DNA of 64,000 bases from a virus (lineage: Duplodnaviria > Caudoviricetes). A program made the translations under genes and the position numbers. Shown here one piece after another: positions 31,228 to 39,120 of the stretch. The notes beneath the pieces were generated by a model. The model ran no database searches. It was not told where the DNA came from and was given only the letters and a program-made list of their open reading frames with translations. The stretch covers positions 1-64,000 of the IMG/VR virus record IMGVR_UViG_3300035396_001032; one strand, 5' to 3'. How positions within the stretch are numbered: position 1 is the first letter of the stretch; every line of letters begins with the position of its first letter.

Positions 31228-34113
31228 ATGACATACGCAGAATTTCTTGAAAATATCTTAAGTGAACTACTTAAAATCAACTCATTTGCAGGTAGAATAA
31301 AATTTGCTGATGGAAACTTACAAAGAATTGGTAGTGGTAGTGGTAGAATCGTTTATGATATTGATGGTCAGAAAGTTCTAAAGCTGGCTAAAAATCCTAA
31401 AGGTGTTGCACAAAATGGTGCAGAAATGGATACTGGTCGTTATCAAGATACTCAACATATTGTTACAATTGTTTATGAAAGTGCTGATGATAATGCGTGG
31501 ATAATTTCAGAAAAAGCAAAAAAAGTTACTGAAAGAAGAATAAAAGAACTTACAGGTATTCCAAGTCTTAGTGACCTATATTACTTTCTCAGTAATTATG
31601 AGTCACAAGCTAAGGGTCGTAGACCAATTCATCGTCAAGACCAAGAACTAACAGATTTTTTCTGGGAAAATGAATTTGCAACACAGATTGGCGATTTGAT
31701 TGCTAATTACAGTCAACACGCAGGTGACATGGGAAGACCAAGTACATATGGTGAAGTACTTCGTGATGGTCAACCATCAATCGTTCTAACTGATTATGGT
31801 CTAAGTGATGAAGTGTATTCATCACACTATGAAAGAAAACCCAATAAATATCAAATGTATGAAATGTATAACTTTGCCGATGGCAATGATGATATGCTTT
31901 CAGACATTGGTAATGTTGGTCAAGACCAAAGGCGTGGAATGTGGGCATTAATTCCACAAGGTGTGGGCGATGGTGATGAACCAATGAATGAAGAATTCAT
32001 TGACTATGTTCAAAACAGAAATAAATATCCTGAAAAACGTTTACCTAATCTACCATTCTTAGCTGACAAGTTCAATGAATGTGTAAATAATATCAAAGAA
32101 ACCCTTAACGTTGTTGAAAACAAAAAATTGTTTTACAATAACTTATTGGAACTTCAAGATTACCTTGTTTCCCAGAAGTTTTATGAGAAAGAACAACTAA
32201 ATCATGAGGAATATGTTATTAATGAAGCCGATGTTCCTGATGTTCAAATGTTTAGTTTATCTGACGCAAATTATGCAACGAATATGGCAAATATCGTTGC
32301 ACAGAAATTAGGATTAACTACTCCGAAATTATTAGGTAAGGGCGAAAATGGTTTTGCATTTGAAATCAATGATAATTTGGTGTTAAAACTAACTGCAGAT
32401 GTTAGTGAAGCAGATGCTGGAATAAAACTAATGAGAGGAAACCCAAAATATCTTCCCGAAATTTTTAACATATATAAAATTGTTGATACTGAAGCGAATA
32501 AAGCATATTTTGGATTACTTGAAGAAAATATTAATGAAAAACCACTCGAAAGATTTAGAAAATTTGATGAAGACCTTGCATTGATATTCCCAAATCAAGG
32601 ACTTAATATGTTTTATAAGCCAATGAGAAGAAATTTTGATTATAACACATTGGCTGAAAAGGCGAAGGAAATTCTAACAGCTAATCCAGAAGCAAATGTT
32701 TCAGAACCCGACAGAAAAGCTGCATATGATTACGTCATTGGATTGCTGAACATCAAACAAGAAATGGATAACTTTAGTATTAAGTCAAATGACTATACCG
32801 TAATAGCAAATCTTGGATATAAAAATGGTGTTCTTAAATATTTTGACGTAGGTGGTCGTATGGGTACTCCTGAACCACCAATTGACGATAATAATCTATT
32901 ATATATTCCCGAAGATGCTACTTCTAAGTTCTCAACTATTGATTCAATAGGCAGGGATGATTTTCCAGTGTATGATAATAACGATACATCACCAATGACT
33001 GATAATAATATCAGAACTAATGAAGATTTAGAATATCGTCATGCAAGTGATGCAACTCAAGATAAATATACGATTGACGAACTTGTTGAAAGGGTTTTGT
33101 CATCAATGGCGGGGAGCAGTACTGTTAATGTAAAAAAAAAGTGTAAGTTAGGTGGTCAAGGTAATACAAGTGCTGCTTGTAATCAGGGTGATATCAGTAA
33201 CTTAGATATTAAACCACTTACTGAAGCATCAATTCCATATAATAAAACTTATTGGGGATGGGTATCACCAAGCAATGAATTTATTCAAGTTCCACAACTA
33301 CAACATGCAGAATATATTCGAACTAAATACCCAAATCTTTTCATGCTTGACGATGTATTTGAACAAGCATTTAAAGATGGTTGGGTAAGAGTTATATATC
33401 AATATTATCAAGATAGATTCTCTGGTAGTTTATCAATTAATGGTTACGATAAGAAACGTGTGAAACACGTGTTGAAAACCATGTTTTTTGACAGCATTAA
33501 ATATGGTGATAATCAAATATATTTGGCATATGAAAATCCTGATGGTGGTGACATGTTCAGAACCAATAGTGCAGATAATAAAGCAAAACTGGCGAGTTAT
33601 ATATCTGAAAACGTTTTAAATGAAACTGGTGAGGGCAATGCTCAACCATATGATGTTACGATTAAAAGAAGTGATGATTATAAAAAGGAATATTCGTTTC
33701 GAACCGAAGATAATGATTATTATGAAATCATATTTAACGAACAATCATTAGGTGATAATAAATGGTATGTTGCATTTGGTACTAAAGATGCTGATACCGA
33801 CCATTATAATTTCAATGTTGTTGTGAATAAAGGCAAGCTATATAGAGTAATGGCAACCTTATTAAAGGTGATGAAAGGCTTCATTGCTAATACAAAACCA
33901 GTTAGCATTGAAATTGAACCCACAAAAAGAAATACGATGCATGTGCAAGATAGAGGAAGATTTAAACTATATTTGCAATATATTAAGAAAAATTTACCAC
34001 CTGATTATGAATTTCTCGAAACTCATGATGCAATCTTCATAGAGAAGAAGAGAGGTGTTAGTGAAACACAATTAATATTAAATAATATTAATGAGGCTAA
34101 ATTATTATTGTAA
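31228..34113 (+). CDS. Polyvalent protein with two atypical protein-kinase-like domains and further unknown domains
   Basis: Kinase 1: IGSGSGRIVY...VLKLA..E...GDMGRPS...TDYG. Kinase 2: LGKGENGFAF...VLKLT..E...SNDYTVIAN...YFDVG. These are followed by a YWGWVSP...QHAEY domain and a C-terminal alpha/beta domain. Confidence 0.7.
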   Translation: MTYAEFLENILSELLKINSFAGRIKFADGNLQRIGSGSGRIVYDIDGQKVLKLAKNPKGVAQNGAEMDTGRYQDTQHIVTIVYESADDNAWIISEKAKKVTERRIKELTGIPSLSDLYYFLSNYESQAKGRRPIHRQDQELTDFFWENEFATQIGDLIANYSQHAGDMGRPSTYGEVLRDGQPSIVLTDYGLSDEVYSSHYERKPNKYQMYEMYNFADGNDDMLSDIGNVGQDQRRGMWALIPQGVGDGDEPMNEEFIDYVQNRNKYPEKRLPNLPFLADKFNECVNNIKETLNVVENKKLFYNNLLELQDYLVSQKFYEKEQLNHEEYVINEADVPDVQMFSLSDANYATNMANIVAQKLGLTTPKLLGKGENGFAFEINDNLVLKLTADVSEADAGIKLMRGNPKYLPEIFNIYKIVDTEANKAYFGLLEENINEKPLERFRKFDEDLALIFPNQGLNMFYKPMRRNFDYNTLAEKAKEILTANPEANVSEPDRKAAYDYVIGLLNIKQEMDNFSIKSNDYTVIANLGYKNGVLKYFDVGGRMGTPEPPIDDNNLLYIPEDATSKFSTIDSIGRDDFPVYDNNDTSPMTDNNIRTNEDLEYRHASDATQDKYTIDELVERVLSSMAGSSTVNVKKKCKLGGQGNTSAACNQGDISNLDIKPLTEASIPYNKTYWGWVSPSNEFIQVPQLQHAEYIRTKYPNLFMLDDVFEQAFKDGWVRVIYQYYQDRFSGSLSINGYDKKRVKHVLKTMFFDSIKYGDNQIYLAYENPDGGDMFRTNSADNKAKLASYISENVLNETGEGNAQPYDVTIKRSDDYKKEYSFRTEDNDYYEIIFNEQSLGDNKWYVAFGTKDADTDHYNFNVVVNKGKLYRVMATLLKVMKGFIANTKPVSIEIEPTKRNTMHVQDRGRFKLYLQYIKKNLPPDYEFLETHDAIFIEKKRGVSETQLILNNINEAKLLL

Positions 34114-34164: not shown

Positions 34165-34992
34165 ATGGGAAACAAATGGAATGATTTGGAAATAAATTTA
34201 CTAAGAAGCATTTATTCTGAAACAAATGATGCTGATATAATTACTTATTTTAGTGGACGAACATTAACATCAATTAAAGTTAAGGCAAAAAGATTAAAGT
34301 TTTATCGTAATGTTGATGTTAAAGCATCTAATAGACGTAGTGCAAGTACTGGTGAAAAAAATGGCATGTATGGAAAATCGTCAAAGATAAGTGGCAAAAC
34401 ATATGATGATTATTATGGTGTTGAAAAATCAAATTCCATAAAAAAAAAGCTGTCTATAGATAAAATTGGTAAAATTGGTTTGGCTGGCGAAAAAAATGGT
34501 ATGCATGGGAAAATACCACACAATAAAGGTATTTCACCAAATGAAACAATAAAACTGAAAATTAAAAGAGGTATTATTGACTATTGGAATAATTTAAATG
34601 AAATAGATTTAAAAAAAAGAAAAGATAAATTAAGAGAAGATTGGATTATTAAAAGGGATAAATATTCGGAAATCGATACATTACCTGAAAAAATTGCAGA
34701 AAAATTATTAATTAAGTTGTGTTTAACATATCAAAAAAAAATAAACATTGGTTATTATAATTGTGACTTTGTAGTTAATGATACAATTCTTGAAGTTCAA
34801 GGAGATTATTGGCATGGCAATCCTGAGTTTTATAATTCGTTTGATAGTATACAAGAAAAAAATATTAATCGTGATAGAAGAAAATTAAATTATTTACAAT
34901 CAAAAGGATTTAAAATAATATATTTGTGGGAAAATGATTTAAAAAAGAATCTCGATTATTGTGAAAAAACATTAATAAAAGAATTAAAATGA
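34165..34992 (+). CDS. Free-standing homing endonuclease-like protein (NUMOD3-like motifs + Vsr/DUF559-like nuclease)
   Basis: GEKNGMYGK and GEKNGMHGK repeats; C-terminal CDFVV..TILEVQGDYWHGN...RDRRK...KGFKIIYLWE; overlaps the cca start by 4 nt. Confidence 0.8.
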   Translation: MGNKWNDLEINLLRSIYSETNDADIITYFSGRTLTSIKVKAKRLKFYRNVDVKASNRRSASTGEKNGMYGKSSKISGKTYDDYYGVEKSNSIKKKLSIDKIGKIGLAGEKNGMHGKIPHNKGISPNETIKLKIKRGIIDYWNNLNEIDLKKRKDKLREDWIIKRDKYSEIDTLPEKIAEKLLIKLCLTYQKKINIGYYNCDFVVNDTILEVQGDYWHGNPEFYNSFDSIQEKNINRDRRKLNYLQSKGFKIIYLWENDLKKNLDYCEKTLIKELK

Positions 34993-36815
34993 GTAATATA
35001 CAAGACTTTATATTAAATATAAGACAAAAGTTATTTATTAAATCACTAATAACTGATTTAAAATCAGACATTTATGTTGTGGGTGGAGCAACCAGAGACC
35101 TTATACTAAATAAGCCCAATAAGGATATTGACTTAATTGTTCGAAATGTGCCAATAGATATATTAATTGCACATCTACAAAAATTTGGTAGAGTAGATGC
35201 TGTTGGTAAATCATTTGGTGTACTTAAGTTTATTGATTCTGATGGACTTGACTATGATATAGCATTACCTCGTAAAGAAATGCCAAACGGTGAAGGCGGT
35301 TATCGTGGTTTTGATGTTCAAAGTGATGAAAATCTGCCAATTGAAGACGACCTAATCAGAAGGGACGCTAAACTGAACGCAATGGCAATTAGTATTAATA
35401 GTGGAAAATTTATTGACCCATTGGGTGGTTTGGATGATATCAAAAATAAATTAATATCTGCTGCCAATCCAGATGCATTTAGTGACGACCCATTGAGAAT
35501 GATTCGGATGGTGGCTTTCGCAAGTCGTTTTGGTTTTACAATTGAGCCAGAGACTATGCAAATGATAATCGATAATGCACATCGTGTAAAAGAAATTGCA
35601 CCTGAAAGAATTTTGACTGAATTTGATAAAATAATCAAAAAGGGTAATAAATTGACAGGTGTTGAGTTGCTTGCAAATACAGGTTTATTTAAGCAGATAT
35701 TTGGTAATGAAATCAAGCCTTCAATGCTTGGTCGTAGAGATTTTGACGGTGTGCGAACTATGGGTGAATTTATATTTCTTATGACATATGGAGTTGTGCA
35801 GCATCCTGCTGCATTTTTCAAGGAGAAACTAAAGGGTGATATTGATTCATTCAAAGAGATTAAAGCACTTGAACAGGCATTTGATAACGCCAGTGCAGAA
35901 AACAGTATTGTTGCAAGAACTATTGCACACAATATGTTTGTTATTTCACCACCATCGTTACAAAGCCAGATACTGCCAACTGCAATTGAAACTGCAGCAC
36001 AGGAATTACTTCAGGGTAAATACCCAAAGACTGTGAATGAACTTGCTTTAAATGGTAATGACTTAATGCAATTAGGATTAAAGGGTAAGGAGATTGGTGA
36101 TGCACAAAAAATGATGTTATTGAAAATCTATTCAGATATTGTTGAAAATAATAAAGAAGATTTACTATCTTTGTTGGGCAAAAATGATGTCAATGAATAT
36201 GGATTCTCTGAACCTAAAAATTCTTGGGAAGCTGATGGTCAGGAAGTTAATGTAGACTTCTTTATCGAAAAATATGACCAATGGAATCAAGGTGAGAGAT
36301 TCAGAGACCCTTCAAAAGAGTCTGTTTTACGATTCTTCGAAGACGAATTTGTTGAATTAGTTGGTGATGAAAAGCTAAGACAAGAATTGCTCTGGGCATT
36401 GACAGATAGGGATGTACTTAACGAAAACGTTGAAATGAATAATATTGCATATACTGGTATCGTTCTTGATGAAACATCAAAACAGAAACTTATTAAGGTT
36501 TTCAGTAAAATGATACCCGAAGGTTGGGAAGTTATTGCACATCATATGACTTTGAACTTAGGTGCAATTGATTCTAAATATGTGCAGGATTTGGATAAGG
36601 AAATCGAACTAACTGTTGTTGATTATGCGATAGATGATAAGGTTATGGCAGTTGGTGTGGATGGCTACCCAACTAACAACAAGAAAGCACACATTACCTT
36701 AGCAGTTAATAGGCAGGGTGGCGGTAAGCCAATGATGTCAAACAGTTTAACTGAATGGAGACCAATTGAGTTTCCGCTTGTATTGAAAGGAATTGTAACT
36801 CAAGTAAGAAAATAA
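34989..36815 (+). CDS. cca: Class II tRNA nucleotidyltransferase (CCA-adding/poly(A) polymerase family) fused to a C-terminal 2H phosphoesterase
   Basis: VVGGATRDL..NKDIDL, EDDLIRRD..LNAMA and DDPLRMIRMVAFASRFGF; C-terminus has two HxT motifs (HHMTL, AHITL); no HD domain. Confidence 0.88.
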   Translation: MSNIQDFILNIRQKLFIKSLITDLKSDIYVVGGATRDLILNKPNKDIDLIVRNVPIDILIAHLQKFGRVDAVGKSFGVLKFIDSDGLDYDIALPRKEMPNGEGGYRGFDVQSDENLPIEDDLIRRDAKLNAMAISINSGKFIDPLGGLDDIKNKLISAANPDAFSDDPLRMIRMVAFASRFGFTIEPETMQMIIDNAHRVKEIAPERILTEFDKIIKKGNKLTGVELLANTGLFKQIFGNEIKPSMLGRRDFDGVRTMGEFIFLMTYGVVQHPAAFFKEKLKGDIDSFKEIKALEQAFDNASAENSIVARTIAHNMFVISPPSLQSQILPTAIETAAQELLQGKYPKTVNELALNGNDLMQLGLKGKEIGDAQKMMLLKIYSDIVENNKEDLLSLLGKNDVNEYGFSEPKNSWEADGQEVNVDFFIEKYDQWNQGERFRDPSKESVLRFFEDEFVELVGDEKLRQELLWALTDRDVLNENVEMNNIAYTGIVLDETSKQKLIKVFSKMIPEGWEVIAHHMTLNLGAIDSKYVQDLDKEIELTVVDYAIDDKVMAVGVDGYPTNNKKAHITLAVNRQGGGKPMMSNSLTEWRPIEFPLVLKGIVTQVRK

Positions 36816-36816
36816 T

Positions 36817-37323
36817 ATGGCAGATTGGAAAGAATCATCTAAACTTGGTTTTGATTTTGAAGATTTTTGTTTGAAAGATATTAACGAAAAGGTTAATCCA
36901 CTTGCATATAGAAATCAGATTAAAAGTGAATATAGCTTTTATGATATAATACTTCATGATGGTAATTTTGCTGAAAATCATCAACAAAAAACTATTGAAT
37001 GTAAGTTTGATGAAAAGGCTAATGAAACTGGTAATATTTGTATTGAAACTGGTTGTAATGGTAGATTGTCTGGATTATTGATTACGAAAGCTGATTATTG
37101 GCAGATTGGCGATGGATTTCAAATGTTTTTAATTAAAACGGATATGATTAGGACATGTATCAACAATCATCCAAATGAAATTCAATATAAAAGGAAATAT
37201 CCAGTAACACAGGAAGATGGTGTTACAAAAGATATGACATTTTATTTAATACCTAAACGATTATTTATTGAATATTGTTTAGAGGTTGCTGGAATTAATG
37301 ATATGACATATAAAGATTTATGA
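36817..37323 (+). CDS. PD-(D/E)xK restriction-endonuclease-fold protein
   Basis: G..FE.F...YDII...TIECKFD..ANETGNICIE motif arrangement. Confidence 0.6.
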   Translation: MADWKESSKLGFDFEDFCLKDINEKVNPLAYRNQIKSEYSFYDIILHDGNFAENHQQKTIECKFDEKANETGNICIETGCNGRLSGLLITKADYWQIGDGFQMFLIKTDMIRTCINNHPNEIQYKRKYPVTQEDGVTKDMTFYLIPKRLFIEYCLEVAGINDMTYKDL

Positions 37324-37886
37324 TTAAAAGATTAGTAGCATTTGACTTTGACGGAACACTGATGAATTCTCCTGAACAAGAGAATGGCATACAGTTATGG
37401 CAAGATAAAATGGGTTACCCATATCCACATAAAGGCTGGTGGGGCAGACCTGAAAGCCTTGACTTAGATGTTTTTGACATCAGACCGTTTCCAAGCGTGC
37501 TGAAACAATTAGAAAAAGAGGTTTCAACACCAGATACTTATGTGATAATATTAACATCACGTATGGAAAAGTTACGCCCACAACTCGAAGCAGTCTTAAA
37601 TAAAAACAATATTCGTGTTGATAAGGTTGACATGAAGCGTAGTGAAAGAACGAAGGGTGAGAAAATTTTAAGGTATTTAGAAGAGTTTCCAAGCATTGAA
37701 GAGATTAATGTATATGATGACCGTGATACAGATATTCAGTCATATGAGGGTATTCGTAACATGATTCCTAAAAACATAGTATTTAATATATACTTGGCTG
37801 CAAGTGGTAGTCTATCATTGCTTGAAGCCAAAAATAAAATAGTTACCATTGTAAATGAGGTGATTTCGAGTTTTATAAAAAAATAG
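37320..37886 (+). CDS. HAD-superfamily phosphatase (Swiss-Army-knife RNA-repair-like)
   Basis: Motif I AFDFDGTL, II ILTSR, III K (TKGEK), IV YDDR; the SP...GWW...ESL insert resembles HAD_SAK-type RNA-repair phosphatases. Confidence 0.8.
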   Translation: MIKRLVAFDFDGTLMNSPEQENGIQLWQDKMGYPYPHKGWWGRPESLDLDVFDIRPFPSVLKQLEKEVSTPDTYVIILTSRMEKLRPQLEAVLNKNNIRVDKVDMKRSERTKGEKILRYLEEFPSIEEINVYDDRDTDIQSYEGIRNMIPKNIVFNIYLAASGSLSLLEAKNKIVTIVNEVISSFIKK

Positions 37887-37890
37887 TAAT

Positions 37891-38259
37891 ATGAAAAAAG
37901 TATTAATTCCCGAAGATAATGACATGAATTTCTATCTGTTTACTGAAATGTTGAACGAATTTGATATTGAATTAATTCAGGTAAAAAATGGCTTACAGGC
38001 GGTGGAATATTGTGATAAGTATTCAGATGTTTGTTTAATACTAATGGATATTAATATGCCAGTAATGGGTGGAGAAGAGGCTGCGGTTATTATCAAACAA
38101 AGACATCCAGAAATTCCAATAATATCACAAACAGCATATAGTGTTTATGGTGCAGTTTCTGAGAAAAATAAAAGTTGTTTTGCACAATTCATTGAGAAAC
38201 CAATTAATATTGAGGGATTAAAAGCTATTATTAGGAAATATTGTTTCGATGAAAAATAA
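37891..38259 (+). CDS. Stand-alone response-regulator receiver (CheY-like)
   Basis: VLIPEDN, NGLQAVE, LILMDINMPVMGG (phospho-Asp), ISQTAY, IEKP. Confidence 0.92.
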   Translation: MKKVLIPEDNDMNFYLFTEMLNEFDIELIQVKNGLQAVEYCDKYSDVCLILMDINMPVMGGEEAAVIIKQRHPEIPIISQTAYSVYGAVSEKNKSCFAQFIEKPINIEGLKAIIRKYCFDEK

Positions 38260-38289: not shown

Positions 38290-39120
38290 ATGATTGACAT
38301 GAGATATAAACCACGTTTTTTACCACAAGTAAGTGCACCATTTGATATTGTGCTACAAAAACTTGATGATGATGGTGTGGGTTATGAAACAACAGAAGTT
38401 GACCCTAATGAATTACAACCATCACAAGGAATTACATTTAGTGATGAAGTTGGTCATGTAAATGTCGATGACATGAATCCAATTTGGATTAGCAATGACA
38501 TGAAAGTTCTTGATGGTCATCATAGAATGGTTCGTGCATTACTTGATAACATTAAAATAAAGGCAGTTAAAATTGACTTGAATGACAAGGATGCCAGTAG
38601 AGTTTTAAATAAGATTCAGGACATTTACGAATACGAGCAGTCAAGTAATATGGAAGAGGTTGTTGGACAAGATGTAATAAATTCCGACAATCAAATCAAT
38701 AGTGGAGTTAGTGACAGCGAATTTCTATCTTCATTAGAAGAAGATAATCTTGCAGTCCAGACTGAAACTCCGAGTGCCAATCAGCAATCAATTATTGCAT
38801 ATCGAAAAGAACCGATAAAAGAAAACTCAATCGTTGGAAACTTTTTTACTCTAAAGCCAGTAAAAGGATTCGATAAATATCAGATTGATTTTGAAAATCT
38901 ATTAGATACTGCTTCACTTGGCGTTACATATAAAGATGGTCAACAGCCTGTGGATATTTTGGCAAAAAGCTGGTTTCCACACGTAAACTTTGAAAAACTA
39001 AGTGAACAATATAATTCACCCTCAATTAATTTAAAAAATAAAGCTATTGCAGAAAAAGCAAGAAAAATGGGTTATGATGGAATCAAATACGGTGACACAC
39101 TAATCCAAGGATTAAAATAA
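38290..39120 (+). CDS. ParB/Srx-like domain protein with second C-terminal domain
   Basis: VDPNELQPSQ...PIWISNDMKVLDGHHR; C-terminal GNFFTL...KMGYDGIKY. Confidence 0.7.
   Translation: MIDMRYKPRFLPQVSAPFDIVLQKLDDDGVGYETTEVDPNELQPSQGITFSDEVGHVNVDDMNPIWISNDMKVLDGHHRMVRALLDNIKIKAVKIDLNDKDASRVLNKIQDIYEYEQSSNMEEVVGQDVINSDNQINSGVSDSEFLSSLEEDNLAVQTETPSANQQSIIAYRKEPIKENSIVGNFFTLKPVKGFDKYQIDFENLLDTASLGVTYKDGQQPVDILAKSWFPHVNFEKLSEQYNSPSINLKNKAIAEKARKMGYDGIKYGDTLIQGLK

Follow-up and report, generated by a model that had tools for sequence, protein, structure and literature searches.

A phage CCA-type nucleotidyltransferase fused to a minimal 2H phosphoesterase and linked to a HAD phosphatase: a probable tRNA 3'-end repair set

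We examined 64,000 nucleotides of a virus of the Caudoviricetes (IMG/VR record IMGVR_UViG_3300035396_001032, positions 1 to 64,000; this whole stretch is called the window below), in which a nucleotidyltransferase gene of the CCA-adding type carries a C-terminal 2H phosphoesterase domain and is followed, two genes downstream, by a HAD phosphatase gene. These genes probably form a set that heals and rebuilds the 3' ends of tRNAs, in a manner analogous to Escherichia coli Cca and its HD domain. The source contig, of which the window is a part, is 81,213 bp long, almost wholly plus stranded and about 27% complete as estimated by CheckV; it carries virion, tail-fibre, helicase and DNA-polymerase genes and is part of an uncultured large phage. 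No relative of the region was found by blastn in the GenBank phage collection, where the best protein match, to a 636-kb uncultured phage, covers the nucleotidyltransferase part alone. The open reading frames at 34989-36815, 36817-37323 and 37320-37886, all on the plus strand and tightly packed, are exactly those of the first-pass annotation of this DNA. ATGA overlaps connect the CCA-type gene to a Vsr-like gene before it and the HAD gene to the intervening orf168. The central features are as follows.

34989..36815, plus strand: gene for a 608-aa fusion of a CCA-type nucleotidyltransferase, a small domain and a predicted minimal 2H domain (open reading frame, domain matches and full-length model)
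35070..35456, plus strand: class II nucleotidyltransferase head, aa 28-156 (PF01743, 75 bits; motifs)
35532..36179, plus strand: CCA-type neck, body and tail, aa 182-397 (PF12627, weak PF13735, NF009814)
36438..36812, plus strand: predicted minimal 2H phosphoesterase domain with a CNPase-like fold, aa 484-608 (model, structural match, weak PF08302)
36543..36551, plus strand: first catalytic HxT motif, H519-M-T521, in HHMTL (invariant H36 and T38 in domain numbering)
36690..36698, plus strand: second catalytic HxT motif, H568-I-T570, in AHITL (invariant H85 and T87 in domain numbering)
37320..37886, plus strand: gene for a 188-aa predicted HAD phosphatase of the SAK family (PF10307, phrog_415)
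37344..37358, plus strand: HAD motif I, DFDGT, aa 9-13 (motif scan, homologue conservation)

The nucleotidyltransferase (NTase) part of the 608-aa protein is, judged by its sequence, a divergent CCA-type enzyme of the class II superfamily. Two Pfam families score above their cutoffs (PF01743 at aa 28-156, 75 bits; PF12627 at aa 182-238, 62 bits), PF13735 matches weakly at aa 347-395, and no HD domain is found by Pfam in the protein, in agreement with the first-pass annotation, which had described a class II enzyme lacking one. The motifs GGATRD (32-37), DID (46-48), RRD (124-126) and DDPLR (166-170) are present, and 12 full-length homologues show no variation at residues D46, D48, R124, R125, D126, D166, D167 and R170. 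The top sequence matches in the PDB are bacterial CCA-adding enzymes (1miv, E 3e-25; 6ibp; 3h37), followed by the A-adding 1vfg; E. coli poly(A) polymerase ranks below the CCA-adding enzymes. Sequence alone separates class II CCA enzymes poorly from poly(A) polymerases, and the enzyme might instead be a poly(A) polymerase, an A-adding or CC-adding enzyme or one that tails other RNAs. Such activities would be compatible with the scores of the NTase below every NCBIfam CCA equivalog cutoff (141 bits against 290 for the best profile, NF009814, and 126 against 451 for NF008137, that of E. coli Cca) and with a PcnB profile match of 87 bits. We nevertheless regard them as very unlikely. The Bacillus-type profile NF009814 aligns with the full head, neck, body and tail (aa 27-398 with profile positions 22-392 of 396), the family carries the PHROG label tRNA nucleotidyltransferase (E 5e-55), and a homologous fusion protein is the sole enzyme of this type in a complete syntenic relative, the 327,676-bp genome G001, whose 42 tRNA genes mostly lack an encoded CCA.

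The only two HxT motifs of the 608-aa protein both lie within its last 125 residues. From its predicted structure, this region is a minimal 2H phosphoesterase domain (mini-2H) with a CNPase-like topology, an assignment for which the HxT motifs, the fold of the model and weak matches in Pfam are the grounds. Across an alignment of 66 homologous domains, the only columns without variation hold the H and T of both motifs and one G. Chance occurrence of the HxT pair was considered and is ruled out by this invariance. An AlphaFold model built from the homologue alignment has a pLDDT of 98, and in an exhaustive structural comparison its first match is the mouse CNPase catalytic domain (Z 13.6, rmsd 2.1 Å, 123 of 125 residues). 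The next 15 matches are all 2H enzymes (Z 7.6-4.4), among them the phage BCSR5 phosphodiesterase, Deinococcus CPDase, Acb1, Arabidopsis CPDase, LigT, MHV ns2, rotavirus VP3, Usb1, ASCC1 and AKAP18; Foldseek also returns CNPase as its top matches (TM 0.7-0.79). The suggestion of a 2H fold for residues ~480-608, made earlier from the two HxT motifs, is thus borne out by the model. The likeness to CNPase appears from the model to be one of fold only, not of sequence. The PF08302 match is below threshold (19.2 against 23 bits, profile positions 135-218 of 250); some relatives pass it (P0011, 32.5 bits), over the C-terminal third of the profile only; and a profile of the 66 homologues, compared with PDB sequences, gave chance matches only and no 2H protein.

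CNPase and the fungal and plant Trl1-CPD enzymes open the 2',3'-cyclic phosphates of RNA or nucleotides to give 2'-phosphates. The mini-2H shares with this group (PF08302) two HxT motifs and, in the model, the same fold. It differs in length (125 residues against ~210-250, or ~60% of the usual 2H size) and in HxT spacing (49 residues against ~80-100), and also in its phage origin, in having no P-loop kinase partner (Pfam finds no P-loop domain in the 608-aa protein) and in being fused to a CCA-type enzyme rather than to a ligase or kinase. The family is very large: a HMMER scan of 1.84 billion representative sequences with aa 400-608 as query matched 1145 clusters at 50% identity (E <= 0.001), many of whose members are stand-alone proteins of 121-140 aa, while many others are located terminally in proteins 1400-2300 aa long. 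In the cultured phages Atu_ph07, RsoM2USA, Phosso and PhiCrAssBcn23 the neighbours of the mini-2H genes are mostly hypothetical proteins. No related loci were found for two stand-alone members, and we found no paper on the BCSR5 phosphodiesterase (PDB 9q2y).

The 188-aa protein is predicted to be a HAD phosphatase of the SAK RNA-repair type with intact catalytic motifs. Its PF10307 (HAD_SAK_1) score of 28.7 bits exceeds the cutoff of 25.6, and there is a match to PHROG 415, 'polynucleotide kinase' (E 2e-6). In 18 homologues, conservation reaches 90% or more at D9, D11 and T13 of motif I, T79 of motif II, K112 of motif III and D134 of motif IV. The previous identification of an RNA-repair-type HAD at this position, made from its DxDxT motif, therefore stands. 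In jumbo phages, stand-alone HADs of this type have been recorded as RNA 3'-end phosphatases (PMC7824862, section 3.4.9). The protein resembles the SAK HADs and the phosphatase domain of T4 Pnkp in its DxDxT motif and its PF10307 match; unlike them, it has no fused kinase, its partners are a mini-2H and a CCA-type enzyme rather than a ligase, and it carries a conserved, family-specific insert at about aa 35-47 (Y35, P36, G39, W40, W41, E45, S46, L47). It is 55% identical to the C-terminal domain of P0043, a relative in which HAD, mini-2H and CCA domains form one polypeptide.

The association of these three domains recurs well beyond the window. CCA and mini-2H domains are joined in 65 of the 177 proteins fetched, in either order, and the fusions take the forms CCA-2H, 2H-CCA, 2H-CCA-HAD (six proteins), 2H-HAD (P0063), HAD-2H (P0123) and N-terminal part-CCA-2H-HAD (P0043), the last three being represented by one protein each. 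A degenerate DNA pattern drawn from the region of the first HxT motif found 77 IMG/VR loci, all with true mini-2H domains. The CCA-type enzyme is fused in 32 and nearby in 12 of these, and the HAD is fused or adjacent in 37. In 10 of the 77, a stand-alone mini-2H precedes a HAD and the fetched locus contains no CCA-type gene; these counts are indicative and carry no statistical test, as the sample is biased to huge phages and to the WE..AHHMT subfamily of the window and many of its loci share descent. Where the fetched locus lacked a CCA-type gene (33 records), such a gene was present elsewhere in 12, all 3 complete genomes included, and a mini-2H and a CCA-type gene are both present in 4 of 4 complete genomes examined; for background, a match to the CCA protein occurs in only 475 of 50,697 GenBank phage records.

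Since polyvalent proteins combine unrelated activities, being fused says little by itself about a common function. The recurrence of 2H, HAD and CCA domains in permuted orders and as adjacent genes argues for one shared pathway, because the same three parts come together in different arrangements, and this is what the first-pass annotation had proposed for them. The combination of a diesterase with a monoesterase fits, because stepwise removal of a 2',3'-cyclic phosphate needs both. We found no paper on the association of CCA, mini-2H and SAK-type HAD domains, in a search outside which the RNA-repair survey of Burroughs and Aravind (2016) fell, and the window apparently belongs to a recurrent, undescribed CCA-2H family.

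Polyvalent proteins were described by Iyer, Burroughs, Anand, de Souza and Aravind in 2017 (PMC5512222), who list 2H among the components and propose an early counter-defence role; the term 'CCA' does not occur in that paper. The relatives of the window protein are alike in stringing together ART-PolyVal, GNAT and 2H domains. The window differs in that its 2H domain is tied to a CCA-type enzyme and a SAK-type HAD and in that the gene is split. Many unrelated conflict domains stand in one polypeptide, as defines the class, in the relatives of 1400-2300 aa, whereas the corresponding segments in the window are separate proteins of 961, 608 and 188 aa. Within the 608-aa protein, the parts between the two enzymes are as follows.

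36180..36218, plus strand: flexible linker 1, aa 398-410, with V-N-E403 (pLDDT < 50; E403 nearly invariant)
36219..36404, plus strand: small domain of a beta-hairpin and three helices, aa 411-472 (secondary structure of the full-length model)
36405..36437, plus strand: flexible linker 2, aa 473-483, with L-N-E479 (pLDDT < 50 across aa 473-486)

The full-length model (mean pLDDT 79.9, pTM 0.56) consists of three units, the NTase (aa 1-397), the small domain (411-472) and the 2H domain (487-608), held on two low-confidence linkers. The small domain is conserved and in relatives stands before or after an inserted Acb1-like 2H domain; an Atlas search with aa 411-472 gave no informative match. In the 12 full-length homologues E479 is invariant and L477 nearly so. 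In 85 of 104 relatives, against ~45% expected, a [LIVM]-x-E motif occurs no more than 25 residues ahead of the mini-2H, with a peak 4-5 residues before the domain; the motif also lies near the start of 46 of 46 internal CCA domains and 10 of 10 internal HAD domains. Short motifs of this sort are cleaved behind the Glu by head proteases of the T4 type, and cargo proteins are loaded by way of N-terminal capsid targeting sequences 10 residues long (PMC9026906). The complete relative G001 encodes a prohead protease of the T4 gp21 type. The linker motifs resemble sites of this kind, and their sequences suggest a polyprotein that would be loaded into the capsid and cut by the protease. As a separate observation, the N-termini of the CCA-2H protein (MSNIQDFILN, 34989-35018) and of the 961-aa protein encoded upstream (MTYAEFLENILSE, 31228-31266) are capsid-targeting-like and resemble the targeting sequence of T4 IPIII, which we take to be MKTYQEFIAE; the HAD protein has no such leader.

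If the linkers are cut, the domains could be independent cargo, with the mini-2H, alone or with the HAD, degrading nucleotide messengers of the host and the CCA-type enzyme acting separately on tRNA. Candidate messengers would be 2',3'-cyclic nucleotides, cyclic oligonucleotides, 2'-5' oligoadenylate and ADP-ribose cyclic phosphate. A role of this kind has been proposed for 2H domains in polyvalent proteins and for their stand-alone counterparts (PMC5512222, section 20; PMC7824862, section 3.4.8), and the frequent stand-alone occurrence of the mini-2H, the flexible linkers with their protease-like sites and the unrelated ART and GNAT domains in the same polypeptides are all consistent with it. 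Acb1 (PF23474), the phage anti-CBASS protein, is likewise a small phage enzyme of 2H fold and is among the structural matches. The predicted fold of the mini-2H is, on the other hand, far nearer to CNPase than to Acb1 (Z 7.2, rmsd 4.0 Å), and the 608-aa protein has no PF23474 match at E <= 0.1. Some relatives carry a separate Acb1/LigT-like 2H domain besides the mini-2H, so that the two are probably not redundant. An Acb1-like signal-degrading enzyme would need no monoesterase partner, and the CCA and HAD partners point to RNA ends rather than signals; the co-recurrence of 2H, HAD and CCA is also far above what random shuffling would suggest. We therefore consider degradation of messengers by independent cargo unlikely.

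The context of the module in the window is that of a divided polyvalent gene, and the remaining genes concerned are as follows.

31228..34113, plus strand: gene for a 961-aa protein, the N-terminal part of the polyvalent proteins (60% identity to the N-terminus of P0042)
34165..34992, plus strand: Vsr-like homing-endonuclease gene, 275 aa (TIGR00632 Vsr, E 1e-8; PADLOC 'HEase', E 3e-7)
36817..37323, plus strand: orf168, an accessory 168-aa open reading frame between the 2H and HAD genes (phrog_13596)

The identity of the 961-aa protein to the metagenomic P0042 (1699 aa) extends over 572 aa, and in P0042 the same polypeptide continues with a CCA domain (1106-1479), the small domain and a mini-2H (1573-1696). 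P0043 (1449 aa) has the layout GNAT-CCA-mini-2H-HAD, and other relatives add ART-PolyVal as well as the separate Acb1/LigT-like domain. Eight IMG/VR loci, one of them in the complete 327,676-bp genome, share the gene order of the window: up315, up224, the N-terminal part, CCA, 2H, [orf168], HAD, [Rec], orf276, orf123 and a glycosyltransferase gene, with those in brackets variable. A single open reading frame spans the N-terminal part, CCA and 2H at some of the loci. The Vsr/DUF559-like gene sits between the two halves of the relatives' single gene and, among the nine syntenic loci, is found in the window and L006 only, an insertion that looks like gene fission by a mobile endonuclease. The first-pass annotation had concluded that this phage assembled the pathway from separate parts. 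That claim cannot be maintained: the module is a conserved syntenic block, inherited within a very large polyvalent protein that T4-like huge phages have in common, because relatives hold the N-terminal part, CCA and 2H, and in some cases the HAD, in one polypeptide, and it is split here by two accessory, probably mobile genes for predicted nucleases.

The second of these genes would be orf168, which is missing in L002, L003 and L007 and doubled in L005. Its product contains the motif D...E-C-K and is connected weakly by Atlas to NOV_C and PDDEXK_14, with no match in Pfam, NCBIfam or the PDB; it is possibly a nuclease of the PD-(D/E)xK type and probably a second mobile or accessory nuclease, outside the pathway. 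PADLOC gave no match for any of the three core proteins. Other observations suggest that the syntenic phages are rich in mobile insertions: in L009 (5150-7364) the CCA gene lies in two open reading frames ~1 kb apart, and the glycosyltransferase homologue has an in-frame, intein-like insertion of ~1 kb in L002 (12507-14957), L003 (11323-13770) and L009 (10916-13399). In the 961-aa protein a domain whose glycine-rich loop, with the Lys that follows it, is reminiscent of protein kinases is present in at least two copies (IGSGSGRIVYDI...VLKLAK and LGKGENGFAFEI...VLKLTAD); this domain has no Pfam match and is repeated in polyvalent relatives. Immediately 3' of the HAD gene, at 37891-38259, is a receiver domain of the canonical response-regulator type that stands alone (PF00072, E 9e-16), present in only two of the eight syntenic loci (L003 and L004) and different from the divergent 'cRec' of jumbo phages. 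The following gene, at 38290-39120, encodes a 276-aa protein (phrog_2859) that is present in every syntenic locus, has a DGHHR motif recalling ParB/sulfiredoxin-type domains and has no Pfam match.

The complete relative G001 offers a view of the tRNAs on which such a module could act. Of its 42 tRNA genes 33 were checked, and 28 of these do not encode CCA; its single CCA-type enzyme is the one fused to a 2H domain, which is also its single mini-2H. Because of this combination, maturation of the phage's own tRNAs is as likely a role for the module as counter-defence. In its plainest form, this would be housekeeping, in which the NTase finishes tRNAs encoded without CCA and the 2H and HAD enzymes clear ends left by processing or breakage, an explanation that overlaps with the repair function we favour. 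Several points speak against housekeeping as the whole explanation. Normal processing by RNase Z, RNase PH or RNase T yields a 3'-OH and requires no 2H or HAD step. Rfam finds only tRNAs, and no self-cleaving ribozymes, in the G001 tRNA clusters, and no ribozymes in the window; because no ribozymes flank the tRNAs, there is no evident source of cyclic-phosphate ends in normal maturation. Hosts with CCA-less tRNA genes already possess a CCA enzyme. The location of the module in a polyvalent protein, which is probably injected, would suit an early counter-defence. On the 81-kb contig, which is only ~27% of a genome, no tRNA genes were found. Housekeeping alone is a real possibility, albeit one on the unlikely side. 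A side observation on these genes is that in G001 (L010, 477-548) ARAGORN calls a tRNA with a CUA anticodon, of the amber-suppressor type, which hints at possible reassignment or suppression of stop codons late in infection.

The same genome bears on the question of RNA ligases. The first-pass annotation had taken the lack of a ligase in the window as support for repair of the 3' end rather than the anticodon loop. This argument does not hold, as the contig represents ~27% of a genome and the tRNA region of G001 includes a gene for an Rnl1-type RNA ligase (PF09511, 68 bits). A stand-alone AAA_33 P-loop kinase of 181 aa, apparently without a phosphatase domain, is encoded elsewhere in G001; neither RtcB nor a PF09414 ligase was found in that genome. 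The 2H and HAD enzymes could, therefore, be the 3'-healing arm of a ligase-based repair of the anticodon-loop type, with a separate kinase and a secondary link to the CCA enzyme. The distances do not favour such an arrangement, the ligase being ~150 kb and the kinase ~100 kb from the module, and no ligase is fused or adjacent to a mini-2H in any protein or locus examined. According to Iyer et al. (PMC5512222), 2H domains of this kind are never associated with ligases of RNA repair. Sealing by a ligase of the T4 Rnl1 type would, moreover, be blocked by a 2'-phosphate product unless the HAD removes the phosphate. A function as part of ligase-based repair is, in our opinion, quite unlikely.

The function we favour is repair of the tRNA 3' end in three steps. 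The mini-2H would hydrolyse the 2',3'-cyclic phosphate on a tRNA whose CCA tail is wholly or partly absent and, by analogy with CNPase and Trl1-CPD, would leave a 2'-phosphate and a free 3'-OH; the SAK-type HAD would then take off the remaining phosphomonoester, and the class II NTase would rebuild CCA. Metal-independent RNases leave cyclic-phosphate ends (PMC7824862), and the likely substrates would be tRNAs of host or phage whose acceptor ends had been cut by defence RNases of this kind or the phage's own tRNA transcripts, which mostly lack an encoded CCA. None of the findings concerns the removal of a 3'-pyrophosphate, which the counter to 3'-pyrophosphorylating toxins suggested in the first-pass annotation would need. 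Immunity directed at the CCA tail of tRNAs does exist, in the form of Cas12a3 (PMC12851939). The E. coli precedent is a sound one, as the first-pass annotation had recognized: before CCA is repaired, the HD domain of Cca clears the tRNA end of 2',3'-cyclic, 2'- and 3'-phosphates (PMC6961547, citing Yakunin et al. 2004). In both cases a CCA-type NTase is physically joined to an end-healing activity, established for Cca and predicted here, and the Cca profile (NF008137) aligns with the head of the window enzyme (aa 27-238). The phage protein differs in that it has no HD domain and a body and tail of the Bacillus type, and in that healing would come from a 2H domain in cis and a HAD in trans, or in cis in some relatives.

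A number of findings weigh against this function. The NCBIfam scores below cutoff leave CCA-adding, A-adding and poly(A) activities undistinguished at the level of sequence. Polyvalent proteins join unrelated activities, and the relatives add ART, GNAT and Acb1-like domains. The full-length model predicts zero contacts among the NTase, small domain and 2H domain, and the fusion may serve co-packaging rather than coupled catalysis; an argument from fusion to substrate channelling is weakened because the linkers fit cleavage of the cargo into separate enzymes. No CCA or HAD gene is nearby in 23 of the 77 mini-2H loci, although many of these 23 are short. Section 20 of PMC5512222 proposes that the 2H domains of polyvalent proteins are RNases or degraders of nucleotide signals. 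Finally, Cas12a3 cuts with a RuvC site, which is not expected to leave a cyclic phosphate, so that the best-documented tail-cutting defence needs no 2H or HAD step. We would also raise a more speculative and rather unlikely extension of the repair function, in which a cleavable repair kit is loaded into the capsid, injected with the DNA and reverses cleavage of tRNA tails by abortive-infection RNases before phage genes are expressed, the mini-2H being a new and widespread 2H branch that heals RNA 3' ends.

In bacterial immunity, tRNA is a main target, attacked by anticodon nucleases, PARIS, retrons and, since 2026, Cas12a3, and the known answers of phages are spare tRNAs and ligase-based anticodon repair. 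If the function proposed here is correct, a kit that heals and rebuilds the 3' end would be a further counter-measure of phages. It would also be a case of convergent evolution, with the solution of E. coli Cca and its HD domain remade from unrelated folds. Should the mini-2H instead degrade signals, the family would be a new group of anti-signalling enzymes, of comparable interest. With the repair function, a very large family of unannotated 125-aa phage proteins would gain a role, and enzymology a minimal 2H scaffold.

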